Notes: generated from the letters alone by a model not told the origin. Numbered from the stretch's first letter, positions 10,530-21,600 are shown. The stretch: 64,000 nucleotides of DNA from Phyllosticta citribraziliensis (GCF_038025025.1 NW_027117348.1:1426001-1490000); one strand, 5' to 3'. Numbers and translations: made by a program.

Positions 10530-13040
10530 TCAATCCCACGCATCGCCCCATCCGTCATCCATGTCCTCCTCTTCTACAGCCTTCTTCTTCTCTTCCACCT
10601 TCTTGACCTCTTTCTTGACTACCGTCGTCTTGGCCTTGCTGGCTGGCACAACCGGCGTTGTCTTCTTCACTGCTGCAACCGGTTTCATTGTCGGCGCTTT
10701 GCTCGTCGTACTTGGTTTGCTCAACCCCTTTGGCAACGGCTTCTTTGCTGCCTGTTTCGCCTGGGCCTGTGCCGTCAACCACCCTGCAAAGTCGGGTTCG
10801 CCCTTGTCATCAAATGGGACAGATGGCGCGGGTGTGGCCGCGGTAGGCGTTGCAAATGGGTCGTCGTCGTCGTCCGCATTTCCCCAAGCATCCAAGTCGG
10901 CATTGTCGTCGTCTCCGCCAAAGTCGTCGCCCCATTCGTCACCAAAGTCCTCAGGCTCGGGCTCGGGCGTGGCGCCTGCAGTTGCCGGGAGCGAGGTACT
11001 CGAGGCCGAAGCAAAGGGGTTCGCAGGCTTTGTGGCTTGGCGATGGAGAGCTGACGCGGTCGAGGTTGAGGAAGTAGGTCGGGCGGCAGGCGGGACGGAC
11101 GAGGAACGAGAGTCGGTTTGGGAAGAAGTGGGAGCTCCGCCGCCGTTGGTATGTGGTTGAATATCGCCAGTGGCTGCTGCAAGCTTGTTGGTGAAGCTGG
11201 AAATGGCCCAACCAGCCCACGAGTTTTCTTGCTGAGGGGTACTCATGCGCGGCGTAGGACCATTGGCCGAAGTGGTCGAGGCAGGAGGTATGGCGGTTTC
11301 CGGGAGGGTGGCTTGGTATTTTCGAATGCGGTTGAGATAGGCGTCAAGGGTCTTGTTTGCTTGATCACGCACTAGCTTTTCCTTGTCTACAAGCGCCGGG
11401 CATAGTGCGGGAAGAAGCTTGTTCGCGCAGTCATCTTCGCTGTACAAATCCGACGTTGCTGCGAGGGCGAGGAGAGCGGCGTTGCGGCCGTGGACAAAAG
11501 GATCGCGCAGAGCACGAGCAAAGGCTGCTGTCAGCACCTTGGTGCGAGTCTACCAGTTGTCAGCAACATGAAAGCATTTCAAACGATAAACGTACGCTCG
11601 CTCCCAGGTTTCGTGCAATCTTGCCCAAACAAATGGTTGTGTTTGTCCTGATTCCAGGCTCAGGATCATTTGCCGTCTTGGCGAGATGTCGAAGGAGGTC
11701 TCCATTCACAATCCGATCCGAGAGCTTTGGTACCAGGGTAAGCACCGCCTTGACAGTCTGCTCACGCATGACTGGCGCCGTGTCAGAAAAGCCAGTGACC
11801 ATTTGCGGAAAAATCTTGTCCGTGACAAGCTTGTTTGGTAAATGGTCAATCATCAGGGTAAGGTTGTCGAGTAAACATATGCGGATAGCCCTGTCTGGAC
11901 TCTGGAATAGTCGAACGATGACGGGCGTAATTTGAGATTCATATTCTTCATCCGACAGCTTTTGGGCAATTTTCATAACCAGACCAAAGACCTTGGGGCC
12001 GCCGCCCCCAAACTCGACAGACTTGAGGAGCTCAGGAAGCACTTTTGCCTTGAAGAATTCTTCGGGAAAATCATCCGTCACTTCTTCCAACTGGCTGAGC
12101 AACTCGTCCCTCTCAATCTCGCCCTTGAGCCCAAGGTTCTCAATGCCTTCAGAAAGAGAAATGATGGGTGTCTGGAAAAATCCGCCTGCGCGCTGCCCTT
12201 GGTCGAGAAACTGGCCCACGCTCGACCGTGACTTGGGGCTTGGGTTGATCAATCTCCTGTAGCTCATTTGCATGGTCGATGGGACTCGTTTGGGTTGCCC
12301 AAGCTGGTCGCCGCCTGGAAACCCGCCGTTGAAGGCTTCGTAGACCAAGATGCCGTAATTGTAGGCGTCGACAGCTGTGACAGGGTTCCGCCTGATGGAG
12401 TCCCAGCCGCCCTGGGCAATCTCAGGAGGCGCGTAGCGACCCGAGTCTGGCACCAGGCCTCCGTATGTGTAAATGACTGCGTCGTCCTCCTTGACGGAAC
12501 TCAAGACGTCGAAGCCGCCCAATTTCCACTCGCCGCTTTCGCTGGTGTACACGGAGGATGCGCGAACGCTTCCATGGACCGAGGAAGCTTCCGCATTGAG
12601 GAATTTGAGCGTCTTTGCAACGTTGTACAGGCCCCATTTGATCGTCTCTTCGGATAGGGATTGTCTGCGAATGTGCCAGGTCAAGGGTGTGAGGCGCTCG
12701 GTCGCAATGTAGATGTATGTCTCGGTCTCGACAGTGTCCAAAACCTTGATTACGCCAGGATGTCGCATGGTTCGCAGTTTACGGAGCGCATTCTTCGCAA
12801 GGGGTAATCTCGACTTGTTGGCGGTAATGTCAAAGGAAAAGATGCTGCACTTGGAGCCATCGTCCTGTGAAGCATGTGAGCCATATATCAGAGCAGCGCC
12901 AGTAGGCCAATCCTTACTCGCTTCGTGCCATTATGAAGGGTCCATATGGACTGGTCAATGTCGACGACATCCCCGAAAGAGTAACCAAAGGCTGGGCCTT
13001 TGGCAATGGCGGAAGCGACAGCAGACTTGAGAAAGTCCAT
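10530..13040 (-). CDS. CEX1: SCY1-family pseudokinase with HEAT repeats (Cex1/SCYL1-like), 3 exons
   Basis: Starts MDFLKSAVASAIAKGP. Contains RHPGVIKVLDTVE, VHGSVRASSVYTSESGEWKLGGF, EPGIRTNTTICLGKIA and RALRDPFVHGRNAAL, and ends in an acidic tail DDGWGDAWD. Joins ORFs 11560..12768 and 10530..11537 through short introns. Confidence 0.9.
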
Positions 13041-14085
13041 GAGGCTTCAGGCGACGATTTGAAGCTCTCAGGCTAGGGGCGAGGATTGAACAAAGCTGGG
13101 CCCTTAGTCTGTAACCAAGAGAGTTGTAGCAGCGCGGCCATGATCCATCATCCCCCACACTCGTGAGCTGTTCGGCCAGCAGTTGCCAAGGCGCTACGGC
13201 TACGCGGGTGGCCCGAGCGTCGAAGCGAGCGCCCTGAGCCCTGACGCGCAGCGCGTAACCCAACCGAACCATCCGTCTCTCCATCCTGGCCCTGTTCTTC
13301 TGCAATAACGACATTGACGAAGAACAAGGCAAAACTTCACCCTTTCTCACGTCCAATCTGCTCGCAGTCTCACACGCTTCGATTCTGCTGTCTTTCTTTC
13401 CAGAGTATGTCACATTCCAGCTGTTCACCAAACCCAACCCTCCATCAATGATGAATATGGTAAAAGGTCTGATCGCAAAGCCGCCTCATGGTTCTTGGTG
13501 GACCCTTCTTTGCTAGCCAGCATGCTGAGGACGCTTCAATGTCGTGCTGCATCTCGGATGATTTGCCAATGAGCTCTCGTCCCGACCTCGACAGACGCCT
13601 TTCCGCGGCTGTTGGATCACGCTGAGAGAGCAAATCAATCTCCAAGTCTTGCAACTTTATGGAGCTCGAGTCCAAAAGCTGCTTCCACGGGCTTGAGTTA
13701 ATGGCTGTTGCGCACACCTGCGAATCATGAGCTCAGCTTTCTGGTTCCGGGAAAACCCTCAATCTGGCATTCTGATGAGCTTGCAAGATGCACCATTCAA
13801 GCCGAGGCACTGGCCCTGCAACGTTGGGGAATCCTCGAACCTTTGGCGGTCGAAATGACCATCTTAAAACTGAAAAGATCTGAGATGACGAGTCGCAACT
13901 TTCACGTCGTTCTTTGCTGGCTGCAACACTCTGCTAATTTGCTACCAAACTAGCTCCGATCCGGCCTCCACACAACAATCGAATTGCCAAGCGGTCGACA
14001 AACAATTGCGATTTAAATGGATTACTGTTGACAAAATTCCCACTGGCCTCTGAGGGAGTATCAATCAAGAGGGTGCCCAGGGACC

Positions 14086-17000
14086 ATGGGTAACCCAAAC
14101 ATGGATTGGTCTCCGGTCCGAAAGACGGGCAGTGCAAGACCAAGGGAGAGTCCGTCCTACTCTCCTTATCGAACCGACGACCAAGGAGCATACGACTCGG
14201 ATGGCTACAGGCCAGGTAGACCAGGACCGTACCCAATCCCGAATAAACCTCCATTCGCAAAGTTTCCCCCCCGGCGGCCCTTCGAGCCAACTCCAACTGA
14301 TCGCTATCGACATGACGACTTCCACCAGCCCAGGAGCCCTCCTCAACGCATGGAAGATGGTCATCAAAAGGGCAGTCCTCGTCCTTCCGGCCGTTTTGAA
14401 GACTTGAATCGGCCATGCAACAATCGCCCTCGCCCGTTCCAAGACAGCCCACCAAGCAGCCCTCGACCTCCTCGACCAAGCGGTCGTTCTGATCCTTTCG
14501 ACAACGGGTACTTTGACTCTCGTCCGCAACCAAGTGGATCAGCGGACAGGAAAAGGTTTATGGAGGCCCCAAACTTCGTTTCCAACAGCAGCTTGACGTG
14601 GAAGAAGCCGACGAGCCGTGACTCTTCTCGGTCCGAGTCAAGCCGTCAGCCCTTCAATGGCTCAGGGAGTGAAGATCCACCACGATCAATTGGCCCTGGA
14701 TCAAACCTCGTATCTGGGTCCGCAGGAATGACATTTGCAGAGCAGGACTTCCAAAGACAACTTGTCGAAGGAAGAAGTTGGGTGGTCACTAGAGAAGAGC
14801 TACCTGCGCTCCTGAGGCTCCCTCACATTTTCATTTCCGCCAGACACGTACCATACAGGTCTACGAACCCGCCTCATATTGCGAGGTTACTGCGCTCAGC
14901 ATACAAACAGGTTAGGGTGCAAGGCTGCGTTGATGGGTACTATGTTAGTTTTCGGAATAACAGCGACGGCAGAGCTGGGCTACGGCGCTGTGTGGAGAGG
15001 CACGACGGTACACTTCTCTTCAATAAGTTTGAAATGGTCATGGAGCCTCACCTTCCTGGTTTGGACAGCTCGTCATCGCAAGATTTGACGCCTGTTACCC
15101 ACGCACCGCACCAGCAGAGCGCCGAGATGCTGGAACGCAATCTGCCTCCAGCCCCGACTGCTTCTCCCGCTCAGACGACCACGTTGGGTCGACACAGTCT
15201 GCGCCCAGATGCTCTCCAAAAGCCAAGCGACAATATCTCTAGTGAACGAAATCTGCCTCTGAACAATCCTCACCTGCAAAGCGCCGAGATGTCGAGCCAG
15301 CACAATCTCTCCCCAAATGTTCCTCCCACCAGGACCATGAAACCTCCCGATCGTAACCCGAACACCCTTCGCCAGCAGATCGTCAAGACATCAAACCAAC
15401 TCATTCTGGAAACGAGTCCTCTTCACCAGCAGAGCTCCAGAACCCCGCGCCAACAACTCGATGAAGCTGAGGAAATTGCAATTCAGGGTGCTGCGTCACG
15501 CGCGACGCCCACCGAGAAGGTCTCGAATTTCCTCCAACAGTGTAAAAATAGCGGGGTGGTGGCCATCTTCGATCATGCCGAGGCGTGGGGCTTGCCCAAG
15601 GGCCGCCCAGGCTGGAGTGTCAAGCTGAAAGTGGACGATCTCGAGATTGGCGATCCCGGCCCTCACCCAAGCAAGATGGATGCCAGCGCCGCCATCGTTG
15701 GTCGCGGTTTCCGCCTTTTGGAGCAGGCACTGCAGGCACAGGATTGCAAATCACCAGTCAAGCTTGAGAGCCTTGAAACTGCGGAGGCTTCGACAGATGC
15801 TACGGTCGGGTCAGCTGCAACCAATGCAAATATACGCAGGCTCCAAGAAGACATAAACTCGCGTCTTTCAAGGGCAAAGGAGCTGCAAGATTGGTTGGTC
15901 GCGAATCCAACAGCCGAAGAGGCGACGATTGAAAGAAGCCGTGGTTATCACAATGACATCATGGACAGAGTTGAGGGAATCCGGCAGGAGATTATCAAGC
16001 TTGGTGGTGTTCCAGCAAGCGCAGAGGGTCATGGCGCTGATGAATCGTCGCCGCCTGTAGTGAGAGAACCTACTCCACTCGCCTCTGCAGACAAGGGGCC
16101 TGGTGTTGTTCCGGCGAGCGCAGAGGAGGATCACGGCACTGATGGATTGCCCACACCTTTAGCAAAAGAACCTCCTCCACTCGCCTCTGCAGATAATGAG
16201 TCTGGTGCTTTTTCGGCGAGCGCAGAGGAGAGTCACGGCGCCGATGAATCATCGCCACCTCTAGTCAAGCAGCCTCCTCCCCTCGCCTCTGCAGACATTG
16301 AGCCTGGTGTCGATCACCAATTGCTCACATCTCGGGACTCGATCTCTGCCCCAGACCATGGACAAGCACGACCCATCAATGAGCCGACCAGAAGGAAAAG
16401 CACCGCAACACTTTCGGATGCTTCGGAAACCAGCTCGAAAACCAAGGTAACTCGATGTGCATACTGCAAAACCAAGCATTTTCCGTCGTACAACCCGAGG
16501 AAAACTTGTTCTGGCTGTCGAAGGGCGTACTGTAGCTCCTGCTGGAAAACAGAGTCAGCGAGGGCACTAGACAGGTAAGATATCACTACTAATACGTATT
16601 ACATGGCTGACCTTTCGGCAGTAATGCTGAACCAGAGGGCTGCCGACACTGTGTCAAGACCAACACTCGAATGCTCCCGATGAACCATGAGAGCCACCCA
16701 GCCACCGAACAACTCATTGCTCCCAAGACATCTGAGCCAAAAGTCACGACGCCTCCGGTGGATATCCCTCAACCAGCTCATTCTGCAGAAGTCGTGACAC
16801 GCGAAGCACCTTCTCCAATACGCCATGACGAGCGCCTGGAAAGCGAACACAGAGAAGGACCAGCAGAGGCTTTAAGCCAGGTCGAGAAGAGGCTTCTGGA
16901 ACGCCGGGGATCAAACCGCGACGAAGCTCCAGCAGCTTCTCCAAGTCATGCAGAGACACGAATGCTTCCAGATCCCGAGCAAGCTGAACGCAGTGATGCT

Positions 17001-18671
17001 CCAGCAGCATCTCCAAGTCACACAGGCACAGGAACTATTCCAGGTCGCGTGCAAACTGACCGCACGGAGGCTTCAGAGCTGTATCTGAAGAAGCTTTCAG
17101 GCATCAATGAGCTGTCGTGGTCCGACTTGTTGGGATTTGCGCTTGCGGACAATGGAAACCGTGGAATGACCTGGAACGAGATTTCAGCCTGGATGTATGA
17201 CAACTTCCGGGACAACCGAAGAAACATACAGTCATCAAGCATCCAAGCTACTTTGTCCGGGCAAAAAACTCGGTTTTCTCATGTCGTGAACTCCAAACCT
17301 GCCCGATATTACGCAACAGATGCATTCGCCCAGAATTGCACAAAGCGTCTCTTGCAACTGCGGGCACAAGCCCGCTATATTGTAAAGCTTCCTCTCACGC
17401 AATCCCACAAGCTGGGAGTTGAGAAATCAGCCATCCAGAGCAATGAGGCGACAGGTCCTCAGGCCACTCGAAACATGGATGGTGCCCAAGAGACGAACGA
17501 AAAGAACCTCAAGCGGCCCAGAGAAGAGAGCCACGAGGAGATGCCAAGCCCAAAGGCGCCTCGGAAGTTTGCCTACAGAGCTCGAAAGTCGGCAAGCAAT
17601 GGCAAACGTCTTCAACCACCTGTGAAACAGGAGTCTGTGAGGATCTCAGCTCCTGCCTCGGGACCCGATGGAATTTCTTCAGCGGGTTCTCAGTCTGAGG
17701 CAACGCCTGGGGCTGTTGAAAACCAGGGATTTGGATCTGCGCCGAAGAGTGTCGAGGTCATCAGCCTGAGTTCGGATAGCTCTTCGGACGAGTCGAGACC
17801 TGTCTCTCCGGCGCCTTTATACGCTCCCCGCGTCTCGTTGCGATCTGTCTCTCCGGAACCTGTCTCTGCTCCGCCCGACTTGTCGCGACCTGTCTCTCCG
17901 GCATCTGACTCTGACCCCCCTGACTCGCCGCAAGACCCTCGCATGGCTTTCGCCTTGGCCACTTTGGAAAAGGCCAAAAGCCTGCCTGGGTCACGTCCAG
18001 TGACCATGCCAGAGGACTTGGTCGTCAACGGTTTCTCAGAGGAATTTCAGGACAGACTTACGGCCCGCTACAAGGCCGAATTCTGCAGCGCTCCAACGAT
18101 AGTCAAAGACCTGGCTAAAGAGGCGCCCGCATTCTGTCCCCCGCCCTTTGACCGTGAAGCCAAGATTGCAGAGATCAAGGCGCGTCCTAAACGCAAAGCG
18201 CGTCTCGAAGCGCTCAACGCGAAAGTGGACGCTCCGCGCCTGTTGCACGCGCGCCAGGAGCGTTCGCGCGACGCCATCCACAAGGAAGAACATCACCCTC
18301 TCCCACCTGCGTACAAGGCGCCGCCCCCAGGCGCGTGGTCCTTCGGCTTCGGCACAACACACGACTTGACGGTATCGCAGGAGACGGACGACGTGGACAT
18401 GGACGCGGACAACAAAGCGCCACGACGCAAGGAGAGACGCCACTTCGAGGTAGACGACACGGATGTGGACATGGATGCGGACAACGAGGCGCCGCAGCCC
18501 AAGGAGAAAGACTACGTCGAGACGGTCGAGGAGTGGCTCGGGGGCCCGCCGGCCGACAGCGTGACGTACATGATTACCGACAGAGGCAAGCTGGCTTTTC
18601 GCGAGAAGGCAGCGCCGAATAGGGACGGCAGGATGCCGCGGCCCCGCAAGGTGTGGGTTGTCCCCGACTGA
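14086..18671 (+). CDS. Large (~1,500 aa) putative nuclear protein: Set1-type RRM (SET_assoc), dsRBD-like, PHD-like finger and forkhead-like regions
   Basis: ORFs 14086..16578 and 16671..18671 join in frame across intron 16575..16621 (gtaaga..gctgac..cag). The join completes CAYC..CSGCRRAYCSSC..GCRHC. Domain calls were made by motif recognition. Confidence 0.8.
16003..16305 (+). repeat. Intragenic tandem repeat, 3 x 99-102 bp (33-34 aa)
   Basis: Units start at 16003, 16102 and 16204, each G..(P/S)ASAE..HG.D....P....P.PLASAD. Confidence 0.9.
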
Positions 18672-21600
18672 AGAAGTCGTGGATTGCGCTTCTCTGAGTG
18701 CGCCTGGCTGGCTGCACGGCTGGCAGGAGTTTTAAGGGCCATGAGCTCTTTCTGATTTGGAGTATTGGACAACAAGGTGACGATGAAGACTGATATACCG
18801 GGAGCATTCATCAGCGACGAATGGCACGGAAAAGGACGGTCAACACGGTAAACGATACCCTATATTACCTGATGGCGGCAAAGGTTTTTGTTTTTCAGGA
18901 CGACGGAGCAAAATGGCAGTCTCCTTTTATGAGAGGAGCACTGGATGACGAAATGATGGCACGACAGCACGACGGCACGACGGAACGATTTCTTTACTTT
19001 CTTGCTTGGCTTGCTGGTGATGAATGCTTCATGCACGGCACACCAAGCAAGCAAACGCACAGAGGTGCAAAGAGAACCTGGAGCTTTCTCACTTTTTCGT
19101 GGGCTCAAAATCCCCTGGCGAAGGGGAGAGGCGTTGAAAAGGATGGCTGGCTCAGACAGAAACGGAGAGTAGAATAATAATGATACCCAAACCCTACATG
19201 ACGACGCGACAGACTGCTATTTTTCTCTTCTAGTGCGCAGTTCACAGTGCTGCTACTACAGGCGTGAATGCTCCTTGGCACGATGTAATACCTTACCTTA
19301 CCTGGCGCGCCGTTTAGTTTGGATCAACGAACAGACAGGACAGACAGATAGAGCACTAGAAGTCTGCTCTGTGCGGCAGTAGGTAGGGAGAGCACTGCGG
19401 AGACGCGGTCGTCAGCGTGCGTGGAATGGACAAATAGTGGCAGCCCTGGCGCTAGCATGGCATGGCATGGCATGGCGTAGAACGGCATGACATAGTAGCA
19501 TGGCAGCAGCAGTAGTTGCAATAGTCAGTCGTAGGTACGTTAGCAGCAATAGCAGTAGCAACAGCATCACCATCGTCACCAAAGTATCAGTCAATCAGTC
19601 TACCTCTCCGCATACAATCTACACCGCGCGCCTAATCCACCAACCGATCGACCACCACCGCCGCTGCCGCCGCCGCCACTCCCTCATAGGTAGAGAATGC
19701 AAGTATGGATGGACGACGGATTAGAGTTGGAATCAGAGTGGTGGCACGTGGGCAGGGAAGGTTTCCCACTCTACCATCCCATACCCTACTGCTGGCCCGA
19801 GCTGTGCTATAGTTAGCGGAGCGAGGGGGATGGAGGGTTCAACGCTGCGTGCTCGGCCGGTGTCTTGGCAACAACAAGTGCAGGGCAGGCGAGCAAGAGG
19901 TCTACCGGCCGCCGGCGTCGTCGTGCACATGGTAGTGCTGTGTGAGATAGGTGGGTAGGTAGAAGGCTAGTGCAGCCCACTCAGGCGCCATGCGTGGAAA
20001 CAATAGTGGCGCTAGGGCGCTGCACGGGGGGACGGGGATGATGCGTGGGAGAGGAGAGAACCAAGGACGTTTGCCTCCTTCTTCTCTTCCTTTCATTCTC
20101 GTTGTCTCGCCTTGCTGCAGCATCTGTAGCGAACAGTGGTCGAGTCAATGAGGCAGCAGCAACAACAGCAGTAATAGAACCGGTGGCAATTGTCAGGCTC
20201 ACAAAGATTCCAAGGCAGACCAGACACGAGCAGACGAGGAGGAGGCGAATCATGGACCAGGAGCAGGAGGCGAAAGGACACAAAAGAAGGATCATGCCCA
20301 AGGACGAACAAGAAGCGGGAAGGAACGAGACAAGGTAGACAGACAGGTGGTTGGCTGGCAACTTGACGAAGAAGCTTATGCATCCGTCATCCGCCATCCG
20401 CAAGGAATCCGCCAGCCTCAGGCACACGGCGGCCGGCAGAAGAAACGCCCGCGCCCTCGCTCGCATGCTCGCACGAGGAGCTACATGCACATCGCAACTT
20501 TTTCCTGGTGATCGTCTTGTTGCGAGTGTCGAGAAACGCGGAGACTGGTGGATAGAGAAGCGAGCGAGGGTTGTTGGAGAGGGGACCACCGGAGCGCAAA
20601 CAGACAAGGAAGAGGTCGGCCGGGATGGATCATGGAGCAAGGCACTACGGCGGAACCGTGCGCTTCCCGTCAAGGTTGCGGTGGCCGGCCGCTCGTGCCG
20701 CTCGCAAGGTTGGCTTTAGACTTTTTTTGTCCTTGGGCCATATGGTTTCTTCTTTTAGACGGCGATGAACAGCCTTTTTCCCTGCAAGGCTCGCCGGGGG
20801 CGCCAGAGCCAGCGAGGTGCCTTGAGACTGCGACCAACGACATGTGCAGAAAAAGGGGTTGCGCAGAAGATGAGCGAGGGGGCTGTGTATGTGGCAAGCA
20901 AGCAAGAAGACATGATGTCGCCGCCGTCGTCGTCTGCTCAGCCCTGCCGTGGAGGTGCGGGCGTCTGGTTGGTGGCCACTGTTACAGCGACAATGATGGG
21001 GCGAGGGCGCGCCCAATGAACGGACCTGGCACCTGGAGATGTGCGGGTGGTGGGCCAAGGACTGTCCCTGTCTTGTCTTGGTGCGAGTGCTGAGACCCTG
21101 GAGCGCGGCCGTTGGATGACGGTCGTATCGAAAGCTCCCTGTTGGTGTTGACTGCGCGCGCACAGGAGGGGAGGAGAGAAGGGGGGCCCACCTTTCGCAA
21201 CCAACCAATGCAAGCGACGGGACTCGACGACTCGTCGCCGTCAACCCTCTTTGCTGCTCTCCTCGTATCCCGTCCCTCGCTCCTTGTCGGCCGTTTTTCA
21301 TGCGTCAAGCTCTGCTCACAATCTCATCTCCAAAATCCTCATTTGCGTCTGTTCGGCCGACGCCAAGACCAACCCGGCACCCAGCGCTGCTCGACCGTCT
21401 CCGCTCGGTACGAACGACGACGCGCGTCGCCCTGGACATGCAGCCTATTCGAGCGCGACGGTGATGTGATCGGGAAAAGAAAAGCAAAGAGAAGGAAAAA
21501 GATTGACCTGGCGTGGGTGCAAGCGACGCGACGGACGGCAGCCCTACGGGCCAAGCACAGCCCACAGCCCACAGCCCATTCCAGCCCATCCAGGAGACAG

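Follow-up and report, generated by a model that had tools for sequence, protein, structure and literature searches.

In fungal Set1 (KMT2), the catalytic subunit of COMPASS, the domains follow the order RRM, SET_assoc, N-SET, SET and post-SET, as given in two reports (PMC7040179, PMC9676040). Most of the in vivo RNA cross-linking of yeast Set1 is carried by its second RNA recognition motif (RRM2, aa 415-494) according to PMC5492175. SET_assoc is not described outside Set1 in the literature searched, as far as its text was accessible. Here, we study a gene of Phyllosticta citribraziliensis (Dothideomycetes, Botryosphaeriales, Phyllostictaceae) whose protein carries a SET_assoc domain but no SET domain, and which combines it with a zinc finger of PHD spacing and a predicted forkhead-derived winged helix. 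The gene lies at positions 14086-18671 (+ strand) of the window, i.e., the stretch NW_027117348.1:1426001-1490000 with a length of 64,000 nt. All coordinates are given with respect to this window. The protein family is not mentioned in the accessible text of the literature searched.

The second described system of relevance is that of the forkhead-box (FOX) factors (FOXA, FOXP, FOXN, FOXM; yeast Fkh1). In FOX-DNA structures, an Asn, an Arg and a His of helix 3 make base contacts.

An earlier interpretation of the locus, which was made without database searches (in the following the sequence-only reading), had reported an unusual architecture, i.e., a Set1-type RRM without a SET domain accompanied by dsRBD-like, PHD-like and forkhead-like regions. 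The translations of its four sub-ranges match the strings it quoted. The reading we favour, and which we hold to be somewhat better than an even bet, is that of an expressed gene for a 1512-aa, mostly disordered, non-catalytic and probably nuclear scaffold. That is, the protein would be an RNA/chromatin adaptor and neither an enzyme nor a classical forkhead factor.

Gene structure and transcript evidence

Two long open reading frames (ORFs) are found on the + strand (14032..16578 and 16611..18671), the first with an ATG at 14086. Both can be joined in frame via an intron at 16575-16621 (GTAAGA...CAG) that splits a codon (AG/T). The spliced product of 1512 aa corresponds to a deposited P. citribraziliensis 'uncharacterized protein' (P0003; 100% identity, 100% coverage), which we refer to as the window protein.

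For a transcript check, contigs from public runs were placed on window positions 13800-18900. The intron joint occurs in two runs of separate studies (X1, X3), with one contig in each; these runs were guessed to be RNA and are not recorded as such. The X1 contig (5219 letters) aligns with 0 differences to 13954-16571 and 16619-18900, i.e., it skips 47 nt with GT..AG ends (shifting the cut by +3 yields 16575-16621), and it shows no other joint within the coding region. The X3 contig (4453 letters) stems from a relative (about 7% of positions differ) and has a 47-nt joint identical to that of X1. Ahead of 13954, the X1 contig has 30 further letters, whose only match in the window is at 13375-13404. 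This match is followed by GTATGT and position 13954 is preceded by TAG, such that a 549-nt intron is placed in the 5' untranslated region (UTR). Since two GT..AG joints are present (coding and 5'-UTR intron), we consider the X1 and X3 contigs to be transcript-derived. Furthermore, both ORFs are part of one message, since the 47-nt splice is carried by contigs of two runs. Separate transcripts, by which the sequence-only reading would have fallen, are not what the contigs show. Window 14086-18671 (+) is a single gene with two coding exons and a 47-nt intron. Its parts are as follows.

13375..13404 (+): 3'-terminal part of a first, untranslated exon, as far as covered by the loose 5' letters of the X1 contig
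13405..13953 (+): 5'-UTR intron, GTATGT...TAG, 549 nt, from the X1 contig and the splice-site letters
13954..16574 (+): exon with the start codon (ATG 14086), aa 1-829 plus two bases of codon 830, from the ORF and the X1 contig (contiguous over 13954-16571, 0 differences)
16575..16621 (+): 47-nt intron, GT..AG, from the sequence and the joint in the X1 (0 differences) and X3 contigs
16622..18671 (+): last coding exon, aa 830-1512 plus stop, from the ORF and the X1 contig (covers 16619-18900 and extends past 18900)

SET_assoc without a methyltransferase part

14830..15045 (+): SET_assoc, RRM-like and basic, aa 249-320 (Pfam PF11767)

The Set1-type SET_assoc domain that had been proposed for 14818-15060 is recovered by PF11767, which matches the window protein with 31.3 bits (cut-off 24.1, E 1.5e-7) over its whole length (profile 1-66 of 66). 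All four full-length family members exceed the cut-off, i.e., also the proteins of P. citrichinensis (P0004, 24.7 bits), P. capitalensis (P0005, 35.8 bits) and Diplodia corticola (P0007, 34.5 bits). The domain is basic in each of them (pI 9.2-10.0), and its strand-1 and strand-3 aromatic residues are invariant.

AlphaFold2 (AF2; model of aa 229-640) predicts a b-a-b-b-a-b topology for the domain, with a predicted local distance difference test (pLDDT) of 50-67, and renders the stretch upstream of aa 246 as coil. A Foldseek search with this N-terminal model yields weak rows (E 0.1-1.6). Among the 43 rows listed, 7 are titled RRM, and further ones we take to be RRM proteins. The rows of a VIA search with the same model are all generic helical hairpins and thus uninformative for SET_assoc as well as for the dsRBD-like part discussed below.

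No Pfam match at E<=1 is found for RRM_1 in the window protein, nor for SET, post-SET or N-SET (PF11764) in either exon. For the latter three, the five homologues (5/5) are without match at E<=0.1, in line with the sequence-only reading, which had seen neither a SET nor an N-SET motif. A SET domain is also not among the 16 large ORFs that were scanned elsewhere in the window. With regard to Set1/KMT2, the window protein therefore shares a full-length, basic and predicted RRM-like SET_assoc, but it is without a methyltransferase part, because RRM_1, N-SET, SET and post-SET are missing. Instead, SET_assoc is partnered by a zinc finger and a forkhead domain. As judged from its sequence, the window protein is not a methyltransferase.

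One may also think of a Set1-derived decoy, i.e., a duplicated N-terminal part of Set1 that lost the catalytic half and competes with Set1/COMPASS for RNA or partners. Within the accessible text of the literature searched, SET_assoc is described in Set1 only, and the D. corticola member is annotated as 'set1-like protein', which both fit a decoy. We nevertheless hold it to be quite improbable. No other Set1 part is left in the protein, and the domain could equally stem from shuffling. The COMPASS-binding parts of Set1 are its N-SET and SET regions, i.e., parts that the window protein does not have.

Forkhead-derived winged helix

17103..17390 (+): degenerate winged helix of forkhead type, aa 991-1061, and behind it a long helix reaching aa 1085 (sub-cut-off Pfam match, PDB profile search, AF2, Foldseek, VIA)

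For 17110-17320, a resemblance to a forkhead/winged helix had been noted. The Pfam Forkhead family (PF00250, cut-off 27 bits) stays below its cut-off in the window protein (13.9 bits for the protein of exon 2; 18.9 bits, E 0.0017, when a 91-aa piece is scanned by itself), while the D. corticola homologue, aligned over the forkhead block, is above it (30.6 bits). A family profile of six sequences has 9 matches in the PDB at E<=1, of which 8 are FOX domains at the same profile positions (E 0.05-0.35).

The AF2 model of aa 777-1512 shows aa 991-1085 at pLDDT 65-88 in the arrangement H1-S1-H2-H3-S2-S3 plus a long helix. Foldseek relates it mainly to FOX domains (21 of the 26 rows listed; FoxP3, FOXN1, FoxP2, FoxA, Fkh1, FOXN3, FOXM1) with template modelling (TM) scores of 0.51-0.75, a probability of 0.99-1.00, E 0.0055-0.063 and 21-28% identity. 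The remaining 5 rows listed are MarR-type winged helices. In VIA-align, all 50 of 50 rows span the winged helix (Z 7.1-8.9, where the tool cautions that arrangements with a Z near 8 can be common ones), and the 9 FOX chains among them (Z 7.2-8.4) have the highest sequence identity of the rows (17-26%). Based on these profiles and models, the stretch is a true forkhead-derived winged helix, i.e., the earlier resemblance holds.

Next to this common fold, there are differences to FOX factors. When helix 3 is compared with FOXA2 (HMMER alignment), NSIRH of FOXA2 corresponds to SSIQA in the window protein and to SSVGA, TSIAA or SSIAA in the others. That is, the positions of the FOXA2 Asn, Arg and His are occupied by Ser or Thr, by Gln, Ala or Gly, and by Ala, respectively, in 5/5 members. 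Furthermore, the domain is not basic but near-neutral (K+R about equal to D+E; pI 5.7-8.4 in four full-length domains). Its S2-wing-S3 segment is still forkhead-like in pattern. Because the base-contacting residues appear to be lost, a reading of DNA/chromatin via the forkhead is doubtful.

These data bear on another explanation, in which the protein is a working sequence-specific forkhead transcription factor with SET_assoc, finger and C-terminal parts as accessory regulatory modules. The domain is forkhead-derived by sequence and fold, it retains the S2-wing-S3 pattern, and the protein has conserved clusters resembling nuclear localisation signals (NLS; see below), all of which would be expected from such a factor. 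The replaced helix-3 residues, the near-neutral charge and the sub-cut-off Forkhead scores of the Phyllosticta proteins argue against it, and we regard it as unlikely. From its sequence, the window protein is probably not a classical forkhead factor.

PHD-spaced zinc finger

16456..16652 (+): PHD-spaced zinc finger, a cross-brace of eight Cys (791, 794, 808, 811, 816, 819, 837, 840) that is interrupted by the intron

The intron-split Cys finger suggested for 16453-16655 is present in the spliced product. Its eight Cys follow the PHD-like spacing C-x2-C-x13-C-x2-C-x4-C-x2-C-x17-C-x2-C, and the intron falls between Cys6 and Cys7. The finger is the block best conserved with respect to P. capitalensis (69% identity). 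In the D. corticola homologue, it is of C4HC3 type with His as fifth ligand and a Trp two residues before Cys7. While ligand spacing and the Diplodia variant are thus shared with PHD fingers, the finger of the Phyllosticta proteins carries Cys where the His would be, is without the Trp, and is modelled by AF2 with low confidence (pLDDT 46-64). All Pfam zinc-finger families remain below cut-off (FYVE 18.7 bits, ANCHR B-box 17.2 bits, RING-like and others lower). Pfam PHD matches the D. corticola protein with 16.6 bits (cut-off 24) and no other protein.

The P. citrichinensis model, set against window 16447-16574, is without the finger. Its residues at this place equal the other-frame translation of window 16536-16574 at 12/13 positions, and the X3 contig of the relative is contiguous over the finger. 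Therefore, the missing finger seems to stem from the gene model rather than from a true loss, as far as sequences tell.

The dsRBD-like block

15514..15735 (+): dsRBD-like stretch, aa 477-550, of which only the C-terminal half (aa 519-550) is kept in P. capitalensis (earlier pattern reading; language-model lead)

The sequence-only reading had also proposed a double-stranded RNA-binding domain (dsRBD) at 15514-15735. This part was not supported by profile, PDB-sequence or fold comparison and is left with a sub-threshold language-model lead. For the respective piece (aa 469-558), we find 0 Pfam families and 0 PDB sequences (phmmer) at E<=10, and none of the Foldseek rows listed for the N-terminal model is titled dsRBD. 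AF2, in which the block was folded within the larger piece, predicts helices at aa 475-489 and 530-552, i.e., at the places expected for alpha-1 and alpha-2, but no sheet (pLDDT 28-60).

In a language-model feature search (Atlas, aa 468-556), dsrm clusters come out on top (0.85 and 0.83; LIX1 0.84) and the ten best family-bearing matches all belong to one clan. By the tool's own account, scores below 0.9 are leads only; among shuffled proteins, one in three comes to 0.8, and one in three likewise has all ten matches in agreement. Between the two closest species, identity over the block amounts to 91%, on a par with SET_assoc. In comparison to P. capitalensis, aa 519-550 show 56% identity while aa 477-518 are 93% gaps, and this N-terminal half is also absent from the Diplodia protein. 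For P. capitalensis, a miscalled intron would be a plausible cause of the gap, given that the P. citrichinensis model likewise departs from the reading frame at the finger.

The question is thus whether aa 477-550 form a true dsRBD, by which the protein would tie double-stranded RNA to chromatin. Block length, helix layout, the language-model lead and the close conservation agree with Pfam dsrm. The missing profile and PDB-sequence matches, the missing sheet and a first half that is unconserved past the closest species do not. We consider such a dsRBD doubtful, with a chance of about a quarter.

Family range and conservation

With the exon-2 protein as query, phmmer run exhaustively against 1.84 billion representatives yields 5 proteins at E<=0.001. 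Among them are the proteins of P. citrichinensis (87% identity) and P. capitalensis (39%) as well as the D. corticola 'set1-like protein' (1702 aa; Botryosphaeriaceae). Two shorter relatives (P0006, P0008) resemble parts of the latter. Word-indexed protein searches retrieve nothing beyond the Diplodia protein and its three Phyllosticta counterparts (3/6352, 2/8000 and 1/325 candidates) and no true Set1. In metagenome scans, 0 of 149 pattern matches for the C-terminal motif (described below) and 0 of 61 for SET_assoc patterns were confirmed. In these searches, no relatives outside Botryosphaeriales were found.

The order SET_assoc, finger, forkhead and C-terminal motif is common to the two fungal families, with linkers of varying length. 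With regard to P. capitalensis, the folded parts (finger 69%, as given above, C-terminal block 56%, SET_assoc 46%, forkhead 43% identity) are set off from the linkers (13-31%). The mostly disordered nature is reflected by pLDDT values below 50 for 247/412 and 467/736 modelled residues.

Diplodia-type members (P0007 aa ~1140-1313, P0006) have an additional insert of about 170 aa between forkhead and C-terminal motif, which is hydrophobic, looks folded and is absent from the Phyllosticta proteins. A BAH domain was considered for this insert and rejected; its sole Pfam match is DUF6513 (E 0.076).

Other conserved parts, repeats and gene neighbourhood

The following features complete the protein.

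14149..14172 (+): SPSYSPYR motif, aa 22-29, in the disordered N-terminus (columns S22-R29 without variation among the three Phyllosticta proteins)
15802..16002 (+): coiled coil or helical hairpin, aa 573-639 (in AF2, residues 345-378 and 384-411 of the modelled 412 aa are helical, pLDDT 82-92; 40% identity to P. capitalensis)
15998..16310 (+): in-frame tandem repeat, 102 nt x 3.1, each unit encoding 34 aa (Tandem Repeats Finder)
16926-17064: in-frame tandem repeat, 72 nt x 1.9 (tandem-repeat scan)
17511..17567 (+): NLS-like basic clusters KRPR (aa 1127-1130) and KAPRK (aa 1141-1145), invariant in the three Phyllosticta proteins
17792-17931: in-frame tandem repeat, 45 nt x 3.1 (tandem-repeat scan)
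18039..18251 (+): C-terminal helical block, aa 1303-1373, with core DREAKIAEIKARP (invariant in 6/6 sequences, columns D1340-P1352; AF2 helices, pLDDT 59-81)
18513..18656 (+): conserved C-terminal end, aa 1461-1508, ...EE.L..P....G.L.FR....G...R (alignment, 46% identity to P. capitalensis; AF2 beta-hairpin, pLDDT 55-63)

Hairpin, NLS-like clusters, C-terminal block and C-terminal end go beyond the parts named by the sequence-only reading, and none of the four has a Pfam family. The core DREAKIAEIKARP comprises 13 residues that are invariant across two fungal families. At the repeat of 15998-16310, contigs of relatives skip 201 or 110 nt or step back by 102 or 82 nt, and a skip of 45 nt is also seen at the coding repeats. 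Repeat copy number therefore differs among close relatives, since their contigs skip or repeat whole units. SPSYSPYR presumably resembles the heptad of the RNA polymerase II C-terminal domain. In P. capitalensis, several more YRxDR-type repeats are present downstream of it.

The divergent upstream neighbour (window 10533-12930, - strand) codes for a protein kinase domain with HEAT repeats C-terminal to it, a layout that we take to be SCY1- or Vps15-like. Further neighbours encode argininosuccinate lyase, an enzyme of FAD glycerol-3-phosphate dehydrogenase type, an RGS protein, the acetolactate synthase small subunit and a fungal C2H2 finger protein. That is, the neighbours are ordinary genes and the setting is a housekeeping one.

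This bears on the question whether we are dealing with a fast-evolving, largely functionless ORF whose domain matches are relics. A relic would be consistent with a mostly disordered protein, in-frame repeats of variable copy number, only 5 proteins in the exhaustive exon-2 search and a degenerate forkhead. It is, on the other hand, hard to combine with two ORFs that are both open over 4.5 kb, a splice that is kept in a relative, the domain-wise conservation with 13 invariant residues of the C-terminal motif across two fungal families, and the housekeeping neighbourhood. We thus rate it as very improbable.

Discussion

The unusual architecture reported by the sequence-only reading is confirmed and its architecture claim is largely right. 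Within Pfam, SET_assoc is above its cut-off, dsrm gives no match, and Forkhead as well as every zinc-finger family stay below cut-off in the window protein. The interpretation attached to the architecture is partly supported: the protein may be derived from Set1 and it may link RNA to chromatin, which we treat as candidate readings.

For the adaptor, we infer a role that is probably nuclear and non-catalytic and that would use the RRM-like domain of Set1 type together with the PHD-spaced finger and a winged helix blind to DNA. Along the protein, the folded or conserved parts are arranged as SET_assoc, a short block of uncertain fold, helical hairpin, PHD-spaced finger, forkhead-derived winged helix and C-terminal helical motif. 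In this order, SET_assoc may bind RNA or a partner, like RRM2 of Set1. Finger and DNA-blind winged helix may dock on chromatin or on proteins, while hairpin and C-terminal motif could mediate assembly.

Several points weigh against an RNA/chromatin adaptor. The function of every family member is deduced from sequence and models. Both AF2 models are poor (mean pLDDT 48.5 for aa 229-640 and 45.6 for aa 777-1512), because no more than 4 and 6 sequences, respectively, entered the underlying alignments. The putative equation of SET_assoc with RRM2 of Set1 builds on domain position within the published order and on a low-confidence topology. The loss of Asn, Arg and His from helix 3 is read from a weak alignment (E 0.05), and winged helices can bind DNA by other routes. 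Nuclear localisation is suggested by the basic clusters alone. Finally, the N-terminal half was searched by word index only, such that the family range may exceed the one stated here.

A more far-reaching version, which we deem rather improbable, would be a SET-less offshoot of the Set1 RNA-binding module that was joined to a reader-type finger, a cryptic dsRBD and a DNA-blind forkhead. Depending on RNA, it would serve as a chromatin adaptor and either steer or counteract COMPASS or other chromatin machinery. If true, such a SET-less Set1 offshoot in Botryosphaeriales would add non-catalytic 'Set1-like' regulators as a new class.

The practical value of the finding is limited, since the family is small, fast-evolving, known from a single fungal order and has no phenotype attached. 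Its domain mix of SET_assoc, zinc finger and degenerate forkhead is unusual and seen so far in one fungal order only. In the accessible text of the literature searched, SET_assoc is an accessory part of Set1 only, whereas here it is joined to a putatively base-blind forkhead without any SET domain. This suggests that the function of the module is separable from histone methylation, and the window protein would thus be a natural construct for probing the role of the second RRM of Set1.

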